Below are positions 14,461 to 57,075 of a stretch of DNA of 64,000 bases, in pieces (within the stretch, counting starts at the first letter, position 1; every line of letters begins with the position of its first letter). The stretch lies in assembly GCF_003334785.1 (NCBI RefSeq), contig NZ_QOWV01000002.1; one strand, written 5' to 3'. Origin of the DNA: Escherichia coli. GTDB taxonomy: Bacteria > Pseudomonadota > Gammaproteobacteria > Enterobacterales > Enterobacteriaceae. Both the position numbers and the translations under genes were made by a program. The notes beneath the pieces are model-generated. The model made no database searches, was not told the origin of the DNA, and saw nothing but the letters and a program-made list of their open reading frames with translations.

Positions 14461-14662
<202 letters not shown>

Positions 14663-34487: not shown

Positions 34488-34524
34488 AAAACACCCGATA
34501 ACTTTCGCTATCGGGTGTTTTTAT
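34488..34524. terminator. Bidirectional rho-independent terminator between convergent yfaP and atoB
   Basis: aaaacacccgata-actttcgc-tatcgggtgtttttat: perfect stem flanked by A-run and T-run. Confidence 0.6.
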
Positions 34525-34527
34525 TGA

Positions 34528-35712
34528 TTAATTCAACCGTTCAATCACCATCGCAATTCCCTGACCGCCGCCAATGCACAGTGTTGCCAGCCCCAGCGTT
34601 TTATCGCGTGCCTGCATGGCATGTAATAGTGTGACCAGAATACGAGCACCACTGGCACCGATAGGATGCCCGAGCGCGATGGCCCCGCCGTTGACATTCA
34701 CTTTCTCAGAATCAAAGCCCAGGTTTTTCCCAACGGCAAGGAACTGTGCAGCAAATGCTTCATTAGCCTCAATGAGATCAATATCCGCCAGTTGCAGCCC
34801 CGCCAGTTGTAACGCTTTTTGCGTGGCAGGTACTGGCCCCATACCCATCAATGCGGGGGGCACGCCACCGCTGGCATAACTTTTAATGCGAGCCAGGGGG
34901 GTAAGGCCTGCTGCCAGCGCCGCAGATTCTTCCATAATCACCAGAGCGGCAGCACCGTCGTTAATACCAGACGCGTTCCCAGCGGTGACTGTTCCTGCTT
35001 TATCGAAGGCCGGGCGCAATGCACCTAACGCTTCAGCCGTTGAATTCGCTTTCGGGAATTCGTCTTGACTGAAGACGAAGGTTTTCTTTCGAGTGACAAC
35101 ATTTACCGGGACGATTTCGGCTGTAAAAGCACCGGACTCAATTGCGGCTGCCGCTTTACGCTGTGAATGTAGCGCCAGTTCATCCTGCATTTCACGGGTA
35201 ATTCCGTACTCTTTAGCCACGTTTTCGGCGGTAATCCCCATATGATAACCATGGGTGGCGCACATCAGGCCATCGCGCAGGATTACGTCATAAACCTGTC
35301 CGTCTCCAAGACGATAACCAGAGCGTGCTTTTGCATCGAGTAAGTAGGGGGCTAAACTCATATTTTCCATACCCCCCGCCACAATGCTCTGCGCCTGACC
35401 TGCCTGAATGGCCTGGGCGGCAAGCGCCACACTTTTAAGACCCGAACCACATACTTTATTGACCGTGAATCCGCACACCGTTTCTGCCAGCCCGCTTTTT
35501 AACAGTGCCTGACGCGCCGGATTTTGCCCCAGCCCGGCTTGTAACACGTTACCCATAATCACTTCATCAACGTGTTGTGAATCGATTTTTGCACGTTCAA
35601 TGGCGGCTTTAATTACTGTCGCCCCCAGGTCGATGGCGCTGGTGGAAGCGAGTGAACCGTTAAAACTACCGATAGCAGTACGTACCGCACTGACGATGAC
35701 ACAATTTTTCAT
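34528..35712 (-). CDS. atoB: Acetyl-CoA acetyltransferase (thiolase II)
   Basis: 394-aa ORF recognised as AtoB; thiolase signature at the C-terminus. Confidence 0.95.
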
Positions 35713-35742: not shown

Positions 35743-37065
35743 TCAGAACAGCGTTAAACCAATGACGAAAATGACACCGGAGAAGAGCAGGGCAGTGATG
35801 CAGTAGCCCATGATGTCGCGGACACCGAGTCCGGCGATTGCCAGTGCTGGCAGCGCCCAGAATGGTTGTGCCATGTTCATCCATTGCTCGCCGTAGGCGA
35901 TCGCCATTACCGATTTACCGAGATCAGCGCCCAGCGCCTGGGCTGCGGGTATCACGAAAGGTCCCTGAATAACCCAGTGACCGCCGCCAGACGGAACGGC
36001 GAAGTTAATCAGTGCAGAACTAAAAAAGGTCATTACCGGGAAGGTGTCTTTGTTCGCAACATTGATGAAGAATTCGGTAATGAGTCCGCCCAGACCGGAA
36101 TGCTCCATCATCAGTTGGATCCCAGCGTAGAAGGGGAATTGCACCAGAATACCGGCAGTACTGCGTGCTGCCGCGCTGATAGCACGCATATAAGCCATTG
36201 GCGTTTTATGTAGCAGCAGACCCGCAATCATAAACATCAGGTTGACGGTATTGATGGTGATGTTGAAGCCATGTTCGCTGAAGTACATCGCAAGGTAAGC
36301 GATACCGAGTGCGCCGATGATCAACGTCAGAATGCGGCTTTCTTCCAGTCGCTCGGATGGTGGGGCATCTTTCGGTAGCTGCTTTTGAAAATCAGCCTCT
36401 TCCATGAGTAGTTTTGGATCGATACTCACCACGTCAGACGGTTTTGGCATCATCATGCGGGTGATAAATGGCATCACCACAATCAACGCCACAGTGATGA
36501 AAATGTTAAAACCACTGAACAGAGTATCGCCCACCGGGATCAGCCCGGCGATATGCTCAACCGGGTTGCCCGGTGTTGCAGCCAACAGAGGCATTGATCC
36601 AGAGAAGCCGCCACCCCAGGTGAGAAAACCAATGTAGGCGCAGGCAATGAGCAACGGATAATCAGAACCGGGGACTCGCCGGGCGACTTCACGGGCAAAC
36701 ATTGCGCCGACAACCAAACCAAATCCCCAGTTGATGACACAAGCGACTGAACCGAAGAAAGTGACCAGCATGACGCCCTGTACGGGCGTCTTTGCGGCGG
36801 AGGCGGCAGTACGCAGCAAACTTTTCACCGGAGCAGAGCTGGCAAGGGCATGACCGGTAACGATGATAAGCGCCATCTGCATACCAAACGCCAGCAAGTT
36901 CCAGAAACCGTCACCCCACATTTTCACCATGCTGATCGGCGTTTGTGGTGTTAACCAAAGCGCGATCACGAATGTTAGCAATGTCAGCAACATGGCAAAG
37001 ATCAGTGGATCGGGAAGCCACCGGCTGACAAAACGCGTCATAAAACGCGATATGCGACCAATCAT
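35743..37065 (-). CDS. atoE: Short-chain fatty acid transporter
   Basis: 440-aa polytopic membrane protein between atoA and atoB. Confidence 0.9.
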   Translation of the reverse strand: MIGRISRFMTRFVSRWLPDPLIFAMLLTLLTFVIALWLTPQTPISMVKMWGDGFWNLLAFGMQMALIIVTGHALASSAPVKSLLRTAASAAKTPVQGVMLVTFFGSVACVINWGFGLVVGAMFAREVARRVPGSDYPLLIACAYIGFLTWGGGFSGSMPLLAATPGNPVEHIAGLIPVGDTLFSGFNIFITVALIVVMPFITRMMMPKPSDVVSIDPKLLMEEADFQKQLPKDAPPSERLEESRILTLIIGALGIAYLAMYFSEHGFNITINTVNLMFMIAGLLLHKTPMAYMRAISAAARSTAGILVQFPFYAGIQLMMEHSGLGGLITEFFINVANKDTFPVMTFFSSALINFAVPSGGGHWVIQGPFVIPAAQALGADLGKSVMAIAYGEQWMNMAQPFWALPALAIAGLGVRDIMGYCITALLFSGVIFVIGLTLF

Positions 37066-37712
37066 AAATCACCCCGTTGCGTATTCAGATCGGCGGCGAC
37101 TTCAAACCGAGCTTCTGTTTTGGCACGCACGGTGGCTAAATCACACCCGTCGGCAATTTCGGTGAGCCACATTTTGCCGTCAATAAAACGAAAGACAGCC
37201 AGTTCAGTAACCAGCATATGCACCGCATGTTGCGCAGTGAGTGGCATGGTGCAGCGGCGCAAAATTTTTGCTGAACCATCTTTGGCGCAATGTTCCATGG
37301 CGATGATCACTTTGCGCGACCCGGTCACCAGATCCATCGCGCCACCCATACCGGGCACCATTTTCCCAGGCACTACCCAGTTCGCGAGGTTTGCTTCTTC
37401 GTCTACTTGCAAACCGCCGAGCACGCAGGCATCAATATGACCGCCACGGATTAGCGCAAATGACATGGCGCTATCAAACATGGCTGCACCGGGTAAAACA
37501 CCGCACGGTTGCCCGCCAGCGTTCACCAGATCTGGATGCGCTGTCGTGACCGGGCCTAAACCGAGGAAGCCGTTTTCCGATTGCAGAGTGATATGAATAC
37601 CCTCCGGTAAATAATTGGCGACCATTGTGGGTAAACCGATCCCTAAGTTAACGATGTCACCATCACGAAGCTCTTGCGCCACACGGCGCGCAATACGTTG
37701 TTTCGCATCCAT
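37062..37712 (-). CDS. atoA: Acetate CoA-transferase subunit beta
   Basis: 216-aa ORF; overlaps the atoE start by 4 nt. Confidence 0.93.
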   Translation of the reverse strand: MDAKQRIARRVAQELRDGDIVNLGIGLPTMVANYLPEGIHITLQSENGFLGLGPVTTAHPDLVNAGGQPCGVLPGAAMFDSAMSFALIRGGHIDACVLGGLQVDEEANLANWVVPGKMVPGMGGAMDLVTGSRKVIIAMEHCAKDGSAKILRRCTMPLTAQHAVHMLVTELAVFRFIDGKMWLTEIADGCDLATVRAKTEARFEVAADLNTQRGDL

Positions 37713-38374
37713 TATTTGCTCTCCTGTGAAACGATGATGTGGTCGATAACGGCACCAGGGGTGACAATATGGTCAGGTTGCAGCTCGCCGGTTTCGACCA
37801 GTTCATCTGGCTCTACCAGCGTGATATCAGCCGCAAGGGCTATCAGGGGGTTAAAGTTGCGGGCGCTAAGTTGATAGGTCAGGTTGCCAAGTGTGTCGCA
37901 ACGATGAGCGCGAATTAGCGCCAGGTCGGCGCGCAGTGGGCGTTCGAGCAGCCAGGTTTTACCGTCGAGTGTCAGTGTCTGTTTGCCTTCCTCTACGACG
38001 GTGCCGACACCCGTTGGGGTGAGAAAACCACCAAGTCCAGCTCCACCACAGCGAATTTGCTCGATTAGCGTACCTTGCGGCACCAGAACGACGTCCATCT
38101 CACCAGATATCATGCGCCGACCTGTTTCCGGGTTGGTGCCGATATGTGAAGCAATCACTTTGCGGACTCGACCATTGACGATGAGCGGACCGATGCCGGT
38201 ATCAACAAACGCGGTATCATTGGCTATCAATGTCAGGTCGCGAACACCAGATTCCAGTAATGCTTCAACCAGGCGGGATGGAGTGCCAATCCCCATAAAT
38301 CCGCCCACCATGATGGTCATGCCGTCACGAAAGAAGCCGGTGGCGTCTTGTAATGTCATCAATTTTGTTTTCAT
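37712..38374 (-). CDS. atoD: Acetate CoA-transferase subunit alpha
   Basis: 220-aa ORF; 1-nt overlap with atoA. Confidence 0.93.
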
Positions 38375-38420
38375 TTTTTATCCCTCTTGCATACACCGTT
38401 GTGGGTACAGTCAGGCAATA

Positions 38421-38435
38421 GCAAGGGGAGTGCCA
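38421..38435 (-). promoter_or_regulatory. Sigma54 (-24/-12) promoter of atoDAEB
   Basis: The minus strand reads TGGCAC-tcccc-TTGC (complement of gcaaggggagtgcca), about 50-60 bp upstream of the atoD ATG. Confidence 0.6.
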
Positions 38436-38517
38436 GAATGAGATTATTGGATTTAGTTATTTAACTAATTGAATATGAAGGGATAAATTGGATGGGGATT
38501 TATAAGGAGAATGAGCG

Positions 38518-38558
38518 GCTATGCAGAAAATTGCGCACTGTGCAAATTTCTGCATAGC
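38518..38558. promoter_or_regulatory. Enhancer-like palindrome, candidate AtoC binding site
   Basis: GCTATGCAGAAA (38518-38529) … TTTCTGCATAGC (38547-38558), a perfect 12-bp inverted repeat around a palindromic core (ttgcgcactgtgcaa), about 100 bp upstream of the sigma54 promoter. Confidence 0.55.
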
Positions 38559-38569
38559 AAGTTTTGGTG

Positions 38570-39955
38570 TTATACATCCGCCGGATCGATACCGTATTCC
38601 TGGAGTTTATACATCAATGCACGGCGACTGATGCCCAGCATTAAAGCAGTGCGGGTTCGGTTTCCTTCTTGTTGTTCCAGCACTTCCATAATGATGCGTT
38701 TTTCGACGCGTTTAATTTCCTCTTTTAAATTACGCTCACCGACAGGGGCTGTTTTTACCTCGCCAGCATTACAGACTGGCTGACGAATCTGTGGCGGAAG
38801 ATCCTCAGAAAAAATGATCGGGCCTGAATTCATCACGACGGCGCGTTCAATAACGTTGGAAAGCTCTCGAATATTTCCCGGCCATGACCAGGCGGTAAGC
38901 AGTGACATTGCCATCGGATCGATGTCGATAATATCGCGCTGATTCTCACTACTGAATTTTTGCAAAAAGTGATTAGCTAACAGGGAAATATCTTCCCGGC
39001 GATCGCGCAGAGGCGGCAGTATTAAATGAATAACGTTAAGGCGATAAAAGAGATCTTCACGGAAGGTGCCTTCTTTTACCATTGCCTGCAAGTCGCGGTT
39101 GGTGGCAGCAATGATGCGGATATCAACTTTTATGGTCTGATGGCCGCCAATCCGTTCAAATTCCCGTTCCTGTAGAATGCGTAGTAATTTGGCTTGTAGT
39201 ACCAGCGGCATTTCGCCAATTTCGTCGAGGAGCAGAGTACCTTCGTTGGCTCGTTCAAATAATCCCTGACGCAAGGTTTGTGCACCAGTAAATGCACCTT
39301 TTTCATGACCAAACAGTTCACTTTCGAGCAACGATTCCGGCAGCGCCGCGCAGTTGACTTTAATGAACGGCCCCTTTGCCCGCCGCGAATTGTAGTGAAT
39401 CGCTCTGGCAATCAACTCTTTCCCGGTGCCGCTTTCACCGCTAATCAAGACGCTGGCCTGAGAAAGGGCAATTTTGGCGGTGTCTTTGCAGATGTCCATC
39501 ATCGCCGGGCTGTTGGTGAGAATGTGCCCCCATTGCCAGCTGGTGCTCAGTGCCTGGTGCAGATGACGGATCTCTTTTTTCATTGACTGGAGTTGTAAAG
39601 CGCGCTGAACGATTAAATTCAACTCATCGAGATCAAACGGTTTAATAACATAGTCGAAGGCTCCGCAGCGTAGCGCTTCGACGGCGGTTTCCACTTCCGC
39701 ATAGGCCGTCATCAGAATAACGGGTGTCCGGGTCTCATGGCTGCGCATCTCCTTTAGTGCCTTGATGCCGTCCATCTCTGGCATGCGGATATCCATCAAC
39801 ACCACATCAGGGTGAATATCGGCAAACAGGTGTAATGCTGTGCGTCCGTTGTTCGCACAATGTGTTTCGAATCCTTGTAGTGCAAAAGCGGTGCTCAGCA
39901 TACGGCGAACATTATCTTCATCATCCACAATAAGGATGCGATTAATAGCAGTCAT
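38570..39955 (-). CDS. atoC: Sigma54-dependent response regulator (NtrC family)
   Basis: 461-aa ORF with receiver domain, AAA+ sigma54-activation domain (GESGTGKE) and C-terminal HTH. Confidence 0.95.
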   Translation of the reverse strand: MTAINRILIVDDEDNVRRMLSTAFALQGFETHCANNGRTALHLFADIHPDVVLMDIRMPEMDGIKALKEMRSHETRTPVILMTAYAEVETAVEALRCGAFDYVIKPFDLDELNLIVQRALQLQSMKKEIRHLHQALSTSWQWGHILTNSPAMMDICKDTAKIALSQASVLISGESGTGKELIARAIHYNSRRAKGPFIKVNCAALPESLLESELFGHEKGAFTGAQTLRQGLFERANEGTLLLDEIGEMPLVLQAKLLRILQEREFERIGGHQTIKVDIRIIAATNRDLQAMVKEGTFREDLFYRLNVIHLILPPLRDRREDISLLANHFLQKFSSENQRDIIDIDPMAMSLLTAWSWPGNIRELSNVIERAVVMNSGPIIFSEDLPPQIRQPVCNAGEVKTAPVGERNLKEEIKRVEKRIIMEVLEQQEGNRTRTALMLGISRRALMYKLQEYGIDPADV

Positions 39956-41778
39956 ACAGTCTGATTTCCCTGCGGGTTGATCGGTAAAATAAGCGTGAAG
40001 GTTGCGCCGTAGCCCGGCAAACTGGCGACGCGAATATCACCCTGATGGGCATTAATGATGCGTTGACTTAACGCCAGACCAAGCCCGGTTCCTGAGGCTT
40101 TGGTGGTGAAAAAGGGATCGAAGATCTTTTTTTGCAGCGAGAGATCAATGCCACAGCCGTTGTCCTCTATCGAAATGGCCTGTTGTGAGTCGCTGTATTG
40201 CCAGGTTTGAATGCGAATTTTCCCTCGTGCGCTGATAGCCTGGACGGCATTGATCAGGATATTCAGTAGTACCTGTTTGAGCAGTTCACGATCGGCGTTA
40301 ATCGGGCTTAATTCATTATCCAGTTCGCTTATGAAGTCGACCCGCGCTTGTACGCCGGCGGTTTGTACCAGTACCAGAGTTTCTTCAACCAATGCATTGA
40401 GGCTGACTTGTTGCCATTGACTGTGGCGTGGACGTGAAAATTCGAGCAATTGCTGAATAACTTTGTTAATTGAATCGATTTCTTTGAGTACTACGGACAG
40501 ATATTCCTGATGTATTGGGTCACTGGTTTGTTGGCGCAAGATCTGTACATAACCACGAATAGCCGTTAACGGATTACGTACTTCATGCGCGACGCCAGCC
40601 ATCAGCTCACCCAGTGTGGCGAGGCGTTCTGCTTGCGCCATGCGGCGCTGGGTTTCTTTGCGGGCAGTTAAATCAGAGAAAATCACCAAAGCACCTATCA
40701 TTTCACCGTGCGTGTTATGAATACGACTGGTAGTGACACTGAGTTCAATGGTGCGGTCACGACCTGGAAAACTGATCTCCAGCGCCACATGTTCGGTGCC
40801 ATGTTCCAGCGTATCCAGTACTGGACTGTAGAACTGAGTATTGTCGAACAACATGGAGTAAGGCTGCCCTACCAGTTCATGGCGTTGATAGCCAGTGATA
40901 ACTTCTGCTGCTGGGTTCATGGTGGTTACATCACCCTGGCGGTCAATGGCAATGACGCCATCGGCAGCGTTTTCAATAATCAGATCGTTAAGTGTCCGCG
41001 TTTCACGCAGTGCCTGGGCGAGGTTATTAACACTCTGACTGATTTGCCCCATTTCACCGGGCAATTGTGGTAATCGAGTGGGAATATTTTGTGCCAGAGT
41101 CGAGAGGCCATCGGTGATGATATCAATATTGGCGCTCAGGCGACGGGAGAAAAGGACAATCAACAGCAGGCTTATCAGCAAACCAGCGGTGAGCACAATG
41201 ATAATCCTCACATCCATTTTCCAGGCCTGGCGGCGAATATCTTCGGTTAATTCATTGGCCCAGATATAGCCGAGGATTTCACCATTACGCTCAATGGGGA
41301 GCATTGAATTCAAAATATCGCCGCGCACCTGCCTGCCTGAATAAACTAAAGGGGTATTTGTACGCATCACTTCGCGACCAGGGTGATCTGCGGCAATGGT
41401 AACGCCGACATTATTCTGATATAGCGCTGAAGGCGCGTAGGTGATTATCGCATCCAGCATTTTGTTGTAATAACCAGCACCGATGCCAGGGAAGGCGTGA
41501 GTGATATTTTCGGTAATGGGGGCAAGTTCTGCATTTAATGCGCGGATACGCTCCTCACGTGGTAAGTCGATGTAGAGATCATAGCGATCGCCTAGTGCCT
41601 GATTAAGCAGGTTGACCACGGCAGAAAGTTTTTTCTCTTTTTCAGATAAGACTGCTGAACGTCCTTCCGTTTCTACGATATAACCAATAGTAAGCGTTGG
41701 GACAATGACCATCAGGATTGCCATCAGGATCATTTGATTGCGTAAGCGGCGTGGATAAATCCACTTCATATAATGCAT
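39952..41778 (-). CDS. atoS: Sensor histidine kinase AtoS
   Basis: ORF 39952..41790; start set at MHYMKW… for 608 aa; PAS and HisKA/HATPase domains; ATGA overlap with atoC. Confidence 0.9.
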   Translation of the reverse strand: MHYMKWIYPRRLRNQMILMAILMVIVPTLTIGYIVETEGRSAVLSEKEKKLSAVVNLLNQALGDRYDLYIDLPREERIRALNAELAPITENITHAFPGIGAGYYNKMLDAIITYAPSALYQNNVGVTIAADHPGREVMRTNTPLVYSGRQVRGDILNSMLPIERNGEILGYIWANELTEDIRRQAWKMDVRIIIVLTAGLLISLLLIVLFSRRLSANIDIITDGLSTLAQNIPTRLPQLPGEMGQISQSVNNLAQALRETRTLNDLIIENAADGVIAIDRQGDVTTMNPAAEVITGYQRHELVGQPYSMLFDNTQFYSPVLDTLEHGTEHVALEISFPGRDRTIELSVTTSRIHNTHGEMIGALVIFSDLTARKETQRRMAQAERLATLGELMAGVAHEVRNPLTAIRGYVQILRQQTSDPIHQEYLSVVLKEIDSINKVIQQLLEFSRPRHSQWQQVSLNALVEETLVLVQTAGVQARVDFISELDNELSPINADRELLKQVLLNILINAVQAISARGKIRIQTWQYSDSQQAISIEDNGCGIDLSLQKKIFDPFFTTKASGTGLGLALSQRIINAHQGDIRVASLPGYGATFTLILPINPQGNQTV

Positions 41779-41944
41779 GCTGAAATCCACTAGTCTTGTC
41801 CGGTATATGACGATTATCAGAGGTTAAGGTGATGATTTCTCGGCGGTGTATCATATTCCAGAGAAGAGAGAACATTGCGGTAACACGCTTTTACCGCTAC
41901 CTTAACCACACTCCATCGGTCACCTGAGGCGGAGCTTCGCCCCT

Positions 41945-44794
41945 TTGAAATACCTTGCTTCTTTTCGTACAACCCTGAAAGCCTCGCGCTACATGTTCAG
42001 AGCATTGGCGTTAGTGCTCTGGCTGTTGATTGCTTTTTCATCCGTTTTTTACATCGTTAATGCGTTACATCAGCGAGAATCGGAAATTCGTCAGGAATTT
42101 AATCTGAGTTCCGATCAGGCTCAGCGCTTTATTCAACGCACCTCTGATGTGATGAAAGAGCTGAAGTACATCGCCGAAAATCGCTTATCGGCAGAAAACG
42201 GTGTGCTTTCCCCGCGTGGACGAGAAACGCAGGCGGATGTGCCTGCGTTTGAACCGCTGTTTGCCGACTCCGATTGTTCCGCAATGAGTAACACCTGGCG
42301 AGGTTCTCTGGAGTCATTGGCGTGGTTTATGCGCTACTGGCGCGATAATTTTTCTGCGGCTTACGATCTAAACCGGGTATTTTTAATCGGCAGCGATAAC
42401 CTCTGCATGGCCAATTTCGGTCTGCGTGATATGCCAGTGGAACGCGATACCGCGTTGAAAGCTTTGCATGAACGCATCAATAAATATCGAAATGCACCAC
42501 AAGATGATAGCGGCAGTAACCTCTACTGGATCAGCGAAGGTCCGCGCCCTGGCGTCGGGTATTTTTACGCGTTGACGCCAGTTTATCTGGCGAACCGGTT
42601 GCAGGCGCTTTTGGGTGTCGAGCAGACCATCCGGATGGAGAACTTTTTCTTACCGGGTACGTTGCCGATGGGGGTTACCATTCTTGATGAAAATGGTCAT
42701 ACCCTGATTTCGCTTACCGGACCAGAAAGTAAAATTAAGGGCGATCCTCGCTGGATGCAGGAACGCTCCTGGTTTGGCTATACGGAAGGGTTCCGGGAGC
42801 TGGTGCTGAAGAAAAATCTGCCACCCTCATCGCTAAGCATCGTGTATTCGGTGCCGGTTGATAAGGTGCTGGAACGCATTCGCATGTTGATCCTTAACGC
42901 AATTTTGCTGAATGTGCTTGCCGGAGCTGCATTGTTTACTCTCGCACGGATGTACGAGCGACGTATTTTCATTCCGGCGGAAAGCGACGCCCTGCGACTG
43001 GAAGAACATGAGCAGTTCAATCGCAAGATTGTCGCCTCCGCGCCAGTGGGTATCTGCATTTTGCGTACCGCTGATGGCGTCAATATTTTAAGTAACGAAC
43101 TGGCGCATACCTATCTCAATATGCTTACGCATGAGGACCGCCAACGACTGACGCAAATTATCTGTGGGCAGCAGGTCAATTTTGTTGATGTCCTGACCAG
43201 CAACAATACCAATCTGCAAATCAGCTTCGTCCATTCGCGCTATCGTAATGAAAACGTGGCCATTTGTGTGCTGGTGGATGTTTCTTCGCGCGTGAAGATG
43301 GAAGAGTCGTTGCAGGAGATGGCACAAGCAGCGGAACAGGCGAGCCAGTCAAAATCGATGTTCCTTGCCACCGTCAGTCATGAGCTGCGAACGCCGCTGT
43401 ATGGCATTATCGGTAACCTGGATCTGTTGCAAACCAAAGAGTTACCGAAAGGCGTCGATCGGCTGGTGACGGCAATGAACAACTCTTCCAGCCTGTTGTT
43501 GAAAATTATCAGCGATATTCTCGATTTCTCGAAGATTGAATCGGAACAGTTGAAGATCGAACCGCGTGAGTTTTCACCGCGTGAAGTGATGAACCACATC
43601 ACCGCCAACTATTTACCGCTGGTGGTACGCAAGCAGTTAGGCTTGTACTGCTTTATTGAACCGGATGTGCCAGTGGCCTTAAATGGCGACCCGATGCGTT
43701 TACAGCAGGTCATCTCCAACCTGTTGAGTAACGCCATAAAATTCACCGATACCGGCTGTATAGTTTTGCATGTTCGCGCGGATGGCGATTATCTCTCTAT
43801 CCGTGTTCGCGATACCGGCGTGGGGATACCGGCGAAAGAAGTGGTGCGCTTGTTTGATCCCTTCTTCCAGGTCGGAACGGGCGTACAGCGTAATTTCCAG
43901 GGGACCGGTCTGGGTCTGGCGATTTGTGAAAAACTGATCAGCATGATGGACGGCGATATCTCGGTAGATTCAGAACCGGGAATGGGCAGCCAGTTTACCG
44001 TGCGTATTCCGTTGTACGGCGCTCAGTACCCGCAGAAAAAAGGCGTGGAAGGGTTGAGTGGTAAACGCTGCTGGCTGGCGGTCCGCAATGCGTCGCTCTG
44101 TCAGTTCCTGGAAACCAGTTTGCAGCGCAGCGGCATCGTCGTTACAACATACGAAGGGCAGGAACCGACTCCCGAAGATGTGTTGATCACTGACGAGGTA
44201 GTGAGTAAAAAATGGCAGGGCAGAGCGGTAGTGACCTTCTGTCGTCGCCATATTGGTATTCCGCTGGAGAAAGCGCCAGGGGAGTGGGTACACAGTGTGG
44301 CTGCTCCGCATGAGCTACCGGCATTGTTGGCGCGTATTTATTTGATCGAGATGGAGAGCGACGATCCTGCTAACGCTCTGCCGTCAACGGACAAAGCGGT
44401 CAGCGATAATGACGATATGATGATTCTGGTCGTGGATGATCATCCGATTAACCGGCGTTTGCTGGCAGATCAGTTGGGATCGTTGGGCTATCAATGTAAA
44501 ACCGCGAATGATGGCGTCGATGCGCTTAATGTACTTAGCAAGAATCATATTGATATCGTGCTTAGCGACGTCAACATGCCAAATATGGATGGTTACCGCT
44601 TGACGCAACGCATTCGTCAGTTGGGACTGACGTTGCCGGTAATCGGAGTAACTGCTAATGCGTTGGCTGAAGAGAAGCAGCGGTGTCTGGAGTCCGGTAT
44701 GGACAGCTGCCTGTCGAAGCCGGTAACGCTGGATGTGATAAAACAGACGCTGACGTTATATGCCGAGAGGGTCAGGAAATCGCGGGATTCGTAG
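41945..44794 (+). CDS. rcsC: Hybrid sensor kinase RcsC
   Basis: 949-aa ORF with HisKA H-box (SHELRTPL) and C-terminal receiver domain. Confidence 0.95.
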   Translation: MKYLASFRTTLKASRYMFRALALVLWLLIAFSSVFYIVNALHQRESEIRQEFNLSSDQAQRFIQRTSDVMKELKYIAENRLSAENGVLSPRGRETQADVPAFEPLFADSDCSAMSNTWRGSLESLAWFMRYWRDNFSAAYDLNRVFLIGSDNLCMANFGLRDMPVERDTALKALHERINKYRNAPQDDSGSNLYWISEGPRPGVGYFYALTPVYLANRLQALLGVEQTIRMENFFLPGTLPMGVTILDENGHTLISLTGPESKIKGDPRWMQERSWFGYTEGFRELVLKKNLPPSSLSIVYSVPVDKVLERIRMLILNAILLNVLAGAALFTLARMYERRIFIPAESDALRLEEHEQFNRKIVASAPVGICILRTADGVNILSNELAHTYLNMLTHEDRQRLTQIICGQQVNFVDVLTSNNTNLQISFVHSRYRNENVAICVLVDVSSRVKMEESLQEMAQAAEQASQSKSMFLATVSHELRTPLYGIIGNLDLLQTKELPKGVDRLVTAMNNSSSLLLKIISDILDFSKIESEQLKIEPREFSPREVMNHITANYLPLVVRKQLGLYCFIEPDVPVALNGDPMRLQQVISNLLSNAIKFTDTGCIVLHVRADGDYLSIRVRDTGVGIPAKEVVRLFDPFFQVGTGVQRNFQGTGLGLAICEKLISMMDGDISVDSEPGMGSQFTVRIPLYGAQYPQKKGVEGLSGKRCWLAVRNASLCQFLETSLQRSGIVVTTYEGQEPTPEDVLITDEVVSKKWQGRAVVTFCRRHIGIPLEKAPGEWVHSVAAPHELPALLARIYLIEMESDDPANALPSTDKAVSDNDDMMILVVDDHPINRRLLADQLGSLGYQCKTANDGVDALNVLSKNHIDIVLSDVNMPNMDGYRLTQRIRQLGLTLPVIGVTANALAEEKQRCLESGMDSCLSKPVTLDVIKQTLTLYAERVRKSRDS

Positions 44795-44993
<199 letters not shown>

Positions 44994-48644: not shown

Positions 48645-48737
48645 AAAAAAAACCGAATGCGAGGCATCCGGTTGAAATAGGGGTAAACAGACATTCAGAA
48701 ATGAATGACGGTAATAAATAAAGTTAATGATGATAGC
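48645..48737 (-). ncRNA. micF: micF antisense small RNA
   Basis: The minus strand reads gctatcatcattaactttatttattaccgtcattcatttctgaatgtctgtttacccctatttcaaccggatgcctcgcattcgg followed by T8; matches micF as I recall it, including the terminal stem-loop and U-tract; divergent from ompC. Confidence 0.75.
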
Positions 48738-48892
48738 GGGAGTTATTCTAGTTGCGAGTGAAGGTTTTGTTTTGACATTCAGTGCTGTCAAATACTTAAG
48801 AATAAGTTATTGATTTTAACCTTGAATTATTATTGCTTGATGTTAGGTGCTTATTTCGCCATTCCGCAATAATCTTAAAAAGTTCCCTTGCA

Positions 48893-56713: not shown

Positions 56714-57075
56714 TGATGCGCCACATCCGGCATGGTATGCCGGATGTGGCGTATGCTGATAAGACGCGCCAGCGTCGCATCAGGCAACCGGCTCGGGCGT
56801 TAGATGTTGGATGCGGCGTAACCGCCTTATCCAACCTACGGGGTGGAGCACTTCACAGCGGTGTAGGCCTGATAAGACGCGCCAGCGTCGCATCAGGCAA
56901 CCGGCTTGGGCGTTAGATGTCGGATGCGGCGTAACCGCCTTATCCGACCTACGGGGTGGAGCACTTCACAGCGGTGTAGGCCTGATAAGACGCGCCAGCG
57001 TCGCATCAGGCAACCGGCTCGGGCGTTGGATGTCGGATGCGGCGTGACCGCCTTGTCTGACCTACGGGGTGCCGC
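56714..57075. repeat. Terminator hairpin followed by three tandem REP/BIME units of about 95-100 bp
   Basis: Perfect hairpin gcgccacatccggcat-ggt-atgccggatgtggcg (56718-56751), then three near-identical copies of gataagacgcgccagcgtcgcatcaggcaaccggc…gatgcggcgtaaccgccttatcc…acggggtggagcacttcacagcggtgtaggcct; these produce the spurious overlapping ORFs 56713..57274. Confidence 0.8.

Follow-up and report, generated by a model that had tools for sequence, protein, structure and literature searches.

The intergenic region between atoC and atoD in this Escherichia coli DNA is almost certainly the native control region of atoDAEB, the operon for acetoacetate and short-chain fatty acid degradation, at which phosphorylated AtoC would bind a dyad-symmetric enhancer and, through DNA looping, activate a sigma-54 promoter. 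The region is an ordinary E. coli element that has already been published. The binding of AtoC to both half-sites of the dyad and of sigma-54 to the promoter motif is taken from published work, and what is contributed here is sequence identity, protein domains, conservation and spacing. By analogy with related systems we infer the IHF-mediated loop, the oligomer state of the activator and the exact start site.

The ato locus in the window

All positions refer to the window, i.e. the whole stretch of 64,000 nucleotides that was analysed. The genes on its minus strand are ordered atoS-atoC-atoD-atoA-atoE-atoB (Table 1). Between the stop codon of atoC (38572-38570) and the ATG of atoD at 38374 lies a spacer of 195 bp (38375-38569), most of which is covered by the stretch addressed in the original prediction. 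The same two genes flank the control region in the RefSeq annotation of E. coli K-12 MG1655, and 351 bp around it are 100% identical to MG1655 and to many other strains. In comparison with Pato as it has been described (Pilalis et al. 2011, PMC3118216; Matta et al. 2007, J Bacteriol 189:6324), no difference was found: half-sites, offsets from atoD and flanking genes all agree, and the sigma-54 motif is that of PMC4591121. The window carries the K-12-lineage allele of the region, e.g. a G at position 38416.

The atoC-atoD spacer was present in 3924 of the 5426 complete E. coli genomes. About 28% of the complete genomes are without the ato locus or without the part of it that holds this spacer; one copy of the spacer is plasmid-borne, and some E. 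coli genomes have it in two places. An Rfam scan of the window returned no family in the atoD control region. At other places the scan found the MicF RNA upstream of ompC (48645-48738, minus strand) and six naRNA4/REP-type elements, located in 14544-14614, 44794-44984 and 56754-57062.

Table 1. Genes of the ato locus and elements of the atoDAEB control region (window coordinates)
Feature	Position	Strand	Remarks
rcsC, divergent	41945-44794		
atoS	39952-41790 (as listed ORF)	-	RefSeq CDS 12 nt shorter, start 41778
atoC, response regulator and bacterial enhancer-binding protein, 461 aa	38570..39955	-	ORF; annotated AtoC in MG1655
Antisense ORF, 90 codons, spurious	38511..38783	+	Starts inside the operator, antisense to the atoC 3' end
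AtoC operator/enhancer, 41-bp dyad	38518..38558	.	Centre 38538; 20-nt arms matching at 18/20, outer 12 bp perfect
Promoter-distal AtoC half-site GCTATGCAGAAATTTGCACA	38539..38558	-	Published site -184..-165 from atoD start
Promoter-proximal AtoC half-site GCTATGCAGAAAATTGCGCA	38518..38537	+	Published site -163..-144 from atoD start
AT-rich spacer	38436..38517	.	30% G+C vs 52% for the window; length constant, sequence drifts between species
IHF-like motif ATTCAATTAGTTA	38462..38474	-	One mismatch to WATCAANNNNTTR
Sigma-54 promoter CTGGCACTCCCCTTGCT	38420..38436	-	-24 GG 38434-38433, -12 GC 38422-38421
Expected transcription start zone	38409..38412	-	Predicted from motif spacing
atoD leader	38375..38410	-	Shine-Dalgarno GAGGG 38386..38382
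CTGTACCC in the atoD leader	38410..38403	-	Complementary to Spot 42 nt 4-11
atoD, first gene of the regulated operon atoDAEB	37712..38374	-	ORF and annotation; operon extends to 34528
atoA	37062-37712	-	
atoE	35743-37065	-	
atoB	34528-35712	-	

The sigma-54 promoter and the atoD leader

The original prediction had placed TGGCAC-N5-TTGC on the minus strand at the right distance from atoD, and the motif is indeed there without a mismatch: the core TGGCACTCCCCTTGC (TGGCAC-TCCCC-TTGC) occupies 38435..38421, is intergenic and correctly oriented, and has its -12 GC 47 bp from the atoD ATG. The GG and GC doublets are exactly one helical turn apart and point toward atoD. While this is the sole zero-mismatch match within the 64-kb window, first-order random sequences are expected to contain the exact motif 0.27 times per 64 kb, with at least one copy in 24% of the windows. 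Because of this chance expectation, the motif alone is weak evidence; it becomes meaningful through its position, that is, in the atoC-atoD spacer, in the right orientation and 47 bp from the ATG. No sigma-70-like promoter was detected in the 401 bp scanned (38300-38700).

Applying the usual spacing from -12 element to start site, we predict transcription to begin 35 nt upstream of atoD, at 38409. The AtoC footprint on this promoter has reportedly been numbered -146..-107; with this numbering, the start would fall at 38411-38412, 2-3 nt further upstream than the canonical spacing predicts. The 2007 study of the atoDAEB promoter reportedly contains a DNase I footprint, a mapping of the start site and a result on IHF, and is also reported to describe the loss of acetoacetate induction in an rpoN deletion or with GG-to-TT or GC-to-TT changes of the -24/-12 elements.

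TGGCA and CTTGC do not vary among the 11 intact Escherichia and Citrobacter sequences. In the genome-wide data, CTGGCACTCCCCTTGCT, which is the core plus one flanking base at either end, is the motif of the in vivo sigma-54 ChIP-seq site OS21 (Bonocora et al. 2015, PMC4591121). OS21 is assigned to atoD, has 35 nt to the gene start (corresponding to 38409 here) and carries the mark of a promoter that had been confirmed before. An RpoN-holoenzyme peak obtained in vitro by gSELEX also falls in the atoC>atoD spacer (Shimada et al. 2021, PMC8743547). The sigma-54 reading of the original prediction agrees with both of these data sets. On a reporter plasmid, Pato was found to need atoS and atoC and to respond to acetoacetate (PMC7618054).

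Two natural variants were seen in this part of the region. In the promoter melting region, past the -12 element and ahead of the start, position 38416 carries the lineage-specific K-12-type G (TATTGCCTG), and the equivalent base is C (TATTCCCTG) in the other sampled E. coli strains, in a second Escherichia lineage (L002) and in all Citrobacter. In the pig isolate E. coli CUVM53 (L084, positions ~2578-2646), a deletion that starts at the equivalent of window position ~38427 and goes downstream runs from the spacer of the sigma-54 promoter through the 5' end of atoD; RefSeq annotates this atoD as a pseudogene, and the strain represents a natural promoter knock-out.

Across Escherichia and Citrobacter, conservation of the atoD leader (38375-38412) comes close to that of the coding sequence, with its GTACCC and AGGGA invariant in the intact sequences of both genera. 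It contains the 8-nt stretch complementary to the small RNA Spot 42, the sequence of which we confirmed against E. coli genomes. atoD stands on a list of Spot 42 targets (PMC6127932) and is given as such a target by Beisel 2012, as cited in PMC7618054. The predicted duplex of full-length Spot 42 with the atoD leader (-24.1 kcal/mol versus a shuffled mean of -24.3) was uninformative, and the link to Spot 42 consequently rests on the literature and on the complementarity of CTGTACCC, which by itself could be due to chance (~0.07 expected). Targeting of atoD by Spot 42 may explain the glucose repression of Pato biosensors.

The AtoC operator and its spacing from the promoter

A perfect 12-bp palindrome, about 100 bp further upstream and abutting atoC, had been proposed as an NtrC-type enhancer bound by AtoC. 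Its perfect arms, GCTATGCAGAAA at 38518-38529 and TTTCTGCATAGC at 38547-38558, were recovered as described. An inverted-repeat search extended them to a full repeat unit of 38518-38537 / 38539-38558, 90% complementary around the single central base 38538, so that the claim is refined to a 41-bp dyad with 20-nt arms as the true unit. This dyad is made up of the outer arms GCTATGCAG and the inner core TTGCRCA/TGCGCAA. The proposed location was also correct, as 11 bp separate the edge of the dyad from the stop codon of atoC and its centre is 103 bp upstream of TGGCAC. For a UAS, a site of dyad symmetry would be looked for some 80-150 bp ahead of the -24/-12 elements, and this distance lies within that range. 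Measured otherwise, the gap from the dyad edge to TGGCAC is 82 bp, the centre-to-centre distance is ~110 bp and the dyad centre is ~129 bp upstream of the predicted start.

The window contains four distinct inverted repeats whose arms match perfectly over 12 bp or more and whose loop does not exceed 30 nt, compared to 0.19 expected per random 64 kb. The other three are found at 34488-34521 after atoB, at 44952-44983 inside one of the REP-type matches, and at 56719-56751 just upstream of another such match.

Both halves of the dyad are identical to published AtoC sites. They are listed for atoD among the experimentally positive in vivo AtoC sites (Pilalis et al. 2011, PMC3118216 Table 5), and the published offsets of -184..-165 and -163..-144 map exactly to 38558..38539 and 38537..38518, with letter-for-letter identity. 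As reported in PMC3118216, Matta 2007 described an inverted palindrome of 40 bp, composed of two sites of 20 bp, to which AtoC binds upstream of the atoDAEB start; by the same account, inducibility by acetoacetate depends on these elements, as does the binding of AtoC, and the binding was inducible in ChIP. Elsewhere in the window, no further AtoC half-sites were found with the 20-mer at up to 3 mismatches.

The protein is of the matching type. Judged from its domains, AtoC is an NtrC-type enhancer-binding protein: the Pfam matches comprise Response_reg at residues 7-115 (E = 1.2e-31), Sigma54_activat at 145-311 (2.4e-75), AAA_lid_14 and HTH_8 at 415-454 (2.9e-14), and D55, the Walker A motif GESGTGKE and the GAFTGA loop can be read from the sequence. 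Together with the half-site identity, these activator domains support the proposal of an NtrC-type enhancer bound by AtoC. The helix-turn-helix segment GNRTRTALMLGISRRALMYKLQEYGID is identical in all seven orthologs.

We next turn to conservation, for which the ortholog scan used one genome per species and the alignments also took in E. coli strains. Close AtoC orthologs (83-90% identity) were found only in the other Escherichia lineage (L002) and in five Citrobacter (L003-L007), and all of these keep the order atoS-atoC-atoD-atoA-atoE. The alignment resembles a footprint, in which the dyad, CTGGCA, CTTGC, ATTCAA-N4-TTA and most of the atoD leader are conserved and the intervening stretches are almost randomised. 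The dyad itself is conserved in the seven orthologous loci. Its centre is separated from TGGCA by 103-106 bp and from the ATG by 164-167 bp in 10 of 10 sequences. Within E. coli, variation was observed in the spacers, with none in the dyad or in the -24/-12 elements.

Among the seven distinct operator sequences, 12 of the 20 arm positions are invariant. At two positions, both arms changed jointly: position 9/33 (G>A in L002) and position 12/30 (A/T between Escherichia and Citrobacter). These joint changes possibly reflect quasi-palindrome correction or tolerated positions of the half-site. At position 18/24, one arm has A and the other G in all seven sequences, resulting in an A.C non-pair. 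Since this asymmetry is invariant, it is the sequence rather than mere pairing that appears to be selected, which suggests a protein site more than an RNA hairpin.

The AT-rich DNA between the operator and the promoter shows the opposite pattern, with its length conserved to within 3 bp across the orthologs and its sequence diverged. An IHF-like motif (ATTCAA-N4-TTA) lies in it, and its offset from the dyad centre is fixed at +64 to +66 bp in all 10 sequences. One-mismatch matches of this kind are common (59 in the window versus 50 expected), and because they are not enriched, the constant position alone argues here for an IHF-like site. IHF is reportedly required for atoDAEB induction (Matta et al. 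2007); our literature search on IHF at atoDAEB gave nothing usable.

Several features of the region could also be read in other ways. The palindrome begins 11 nt past the atoC stop, and as atoC-sense RNA the dyad folds at -28.4 kcal/mol (z = -6.0 versus shuffles), so one may ask whether the atoSC transcript has a 3' hairpin here, working as a terminator or a 3' stabiliser, and whether this would be the main role of the palindrome or a second one. The paired changes at positions 9/33 and 12/30 across species would fit such a structure, yet they are equally predicted for the site of a dimeric protein and amount to only two events among seven sequences. The hairpin is not followed by a U-tract (CGCUCAUUCUCC), the terminator scan of 38300-38700 gave no minus-strand terminator, the non-pair at position 18/24 is kept in every distinct sequence, and the published ChIP and footprint data assign the palindrome to AtoC. 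We consider the hairpin unlikely on this balance. An intrinsic terminator as the main function of the palindrome was rejected, given the missing U-tract and the invariant A.C mismatch.

It is very improbable that TGGCAC-N5-TTGC is an inert sigma-54 site and that atoDAEB is transcribed from some other promoter or by read-through from atoSC. An exact motif arises by chance at the rate given above, many sigma-54 ChIP sites in E. coli are without a known transcript (PMC4591121) and no terminator separates atoC from atoD. Against this reading, the motif is intergenic, correctly oriented, 35 nt from atoD and among the promoters that PMC4591121 lists as confirmed earlier; neither TGGCA nor CTTGC varies in Escherichia and Citrobacter or even in the distant loci L008 and L009 described below; no sigma-70-like promoter was found in the atoC-atoD spacer; and a plasmid with Pato alone is inducible and needs atoS and atoC (PMC7618054). 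Next to no chance is given to the plus-strand ORF at 38511-38783 being a real small gene, with the palindrome belonging to its start region. The frame begins with an ATG and stays open for 90 codons, but it is absent from the MG1655 RefSeq annotation, its codon position 3 faces codon position 3 of atoC, and it is rich in Cys, Ser and Arg, as antisense frames typically are. Two in-frame stops interrupt the orthologous regions of three of the five Citrobacter (L003, L004 and L007), no alignment of the ORF with an ortholog reaches residue 1, i.e. its start was not seen to be conserved, and the scan of 38300-38700 found no sigma-70-like promoter for it. The original prediction had called this ORF almost certainly spurious, which these results support.

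Proposed activation and relation to other systems

With the enhancer bound by AtoC and the sigma-54 promoter as the preferred reading, activation of atoDAEB could proceed as follows. Acetoacetate would activate the kinase AtoS, leading to phosphorylation of AtoC at D55. Phosphorylated AtoC would then bind the 41-bp dyad at 38518-38558 via its C-terminal Fis-type helix-turn-helix and assemble into an active AAA+ oligomer, while sigma-54 RNA polymerase would be waiting as a closed complex on TGGCAC-N5-TTGC at 38421-38435. Bending of the AT-rich spacer with its midway IHF-like site would bring the activator to the polymerase, ATP hydrolysis acting through the GAFTGA loop would open the promoter, and transcription would run from ~38409-38412 through atoD, atoA, atoE and atoB.

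In this design, the ato region resembles the NtrC (GlnG)-dependent glnAp2 and other promoters of the NtrC family, which share an activator composed of REC, AAA+ (GAFTGA) and Fis-type HTH domains, a dyad UAS ~100-150 bp from the -24/-12 elements and activation by DNA looping. Unlike NtrC at glnAp2, which uses two or more separate 17-bp sites and responds to nitrogen status, AtoC has one 41-bp dyad that lies directly behind the activator's own stop codon, and the signal is acetoacetate via AtoS. The region is also similar to the IHF-assisted promoters nifH (Klebsiella), Pu (Pseudomonas putida) and prpBCDE (Salmonella), with an AT-rich spacer, an element resembling the IHF consensus approximately midway, and a spacing that is kept while the sequence drifts. 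In contrast to those promoters, the IHF site of ato is deduced from a one-mismatch motif and its positional conservation.

A comparable layout was found outside the enterics, in two distant phyla, namely in a Nitrospiraceae MAG (L008) and a deltaproteobacterial MAG (L009) with homologs of atoS (43-45% identity) and atoC (56%). Downstream of these, L008 has atoD (66%), atoA (66%) and an atoE-like gene, and L009 has an atoE-like gene. In both loci (L008 4380-4510, L009 4375-4535) the atoC stop is directly followed by a dyad with a TGCGCA core, then by TGGCAT-N5-TTGC and an ato gene, in this order. The dyad reads TTTTGCATA-GG-TGCGCAC in L008 and CGCAAATTTTTGCGCA-GG-TGCGCAAGAATTAGCG in L009. The distance between enhancer and promoter is 83.5 and 127.5 bp, respectively, compared to 103-106 bp in the enterics, with steps of approximately two helical turns.

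The core TTGCRYA-N1-2-TGCGCA occurs once and in the equivalent place in 15 of the 15 ato-type loci examined (in L009 the palindromic core also matches the opposite strand at the same spot) and in 0 of 71 other NtrC-family loci, counts that demonstrate specificity rather than an independent discovery, as the pattern was derived from these same ato sequences. Comparison of the dyads suggests an older origin for the inner core as recognition element, with the perfect outer arms peculiar to the enterics, a lead that comes from two distant loci. Going further, enhancer and promoter may form a cassette of ancient origin that is passed on together with atoSC, combining an ancestral TGCGCA core with enteric outer arms, and the dyad may in addition form a hairpin at the 3' end of atoSC; with very few sequences behind it, we put this forward as a tentative and rather doubtful idea.

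The promoter, the AtoC operator and the dependence on sigma-54 were published between 2007 and 2015 and are in use in acetoacetate biosensors, so the finding has little weight as a discovery. Its value is one of calibration: a reading of the raw sequence, made free of tools, got the textbook architecture of an enhancer-binding protein and a sigma-54 promoter right. The comparative detail added here concerns which parts of the operator and which spacings are constrained, and the extension of the layout past the enterics. Such comparative data could aid the re-engineering of Pato or the prediction of AtoC regulons in other bacteria.
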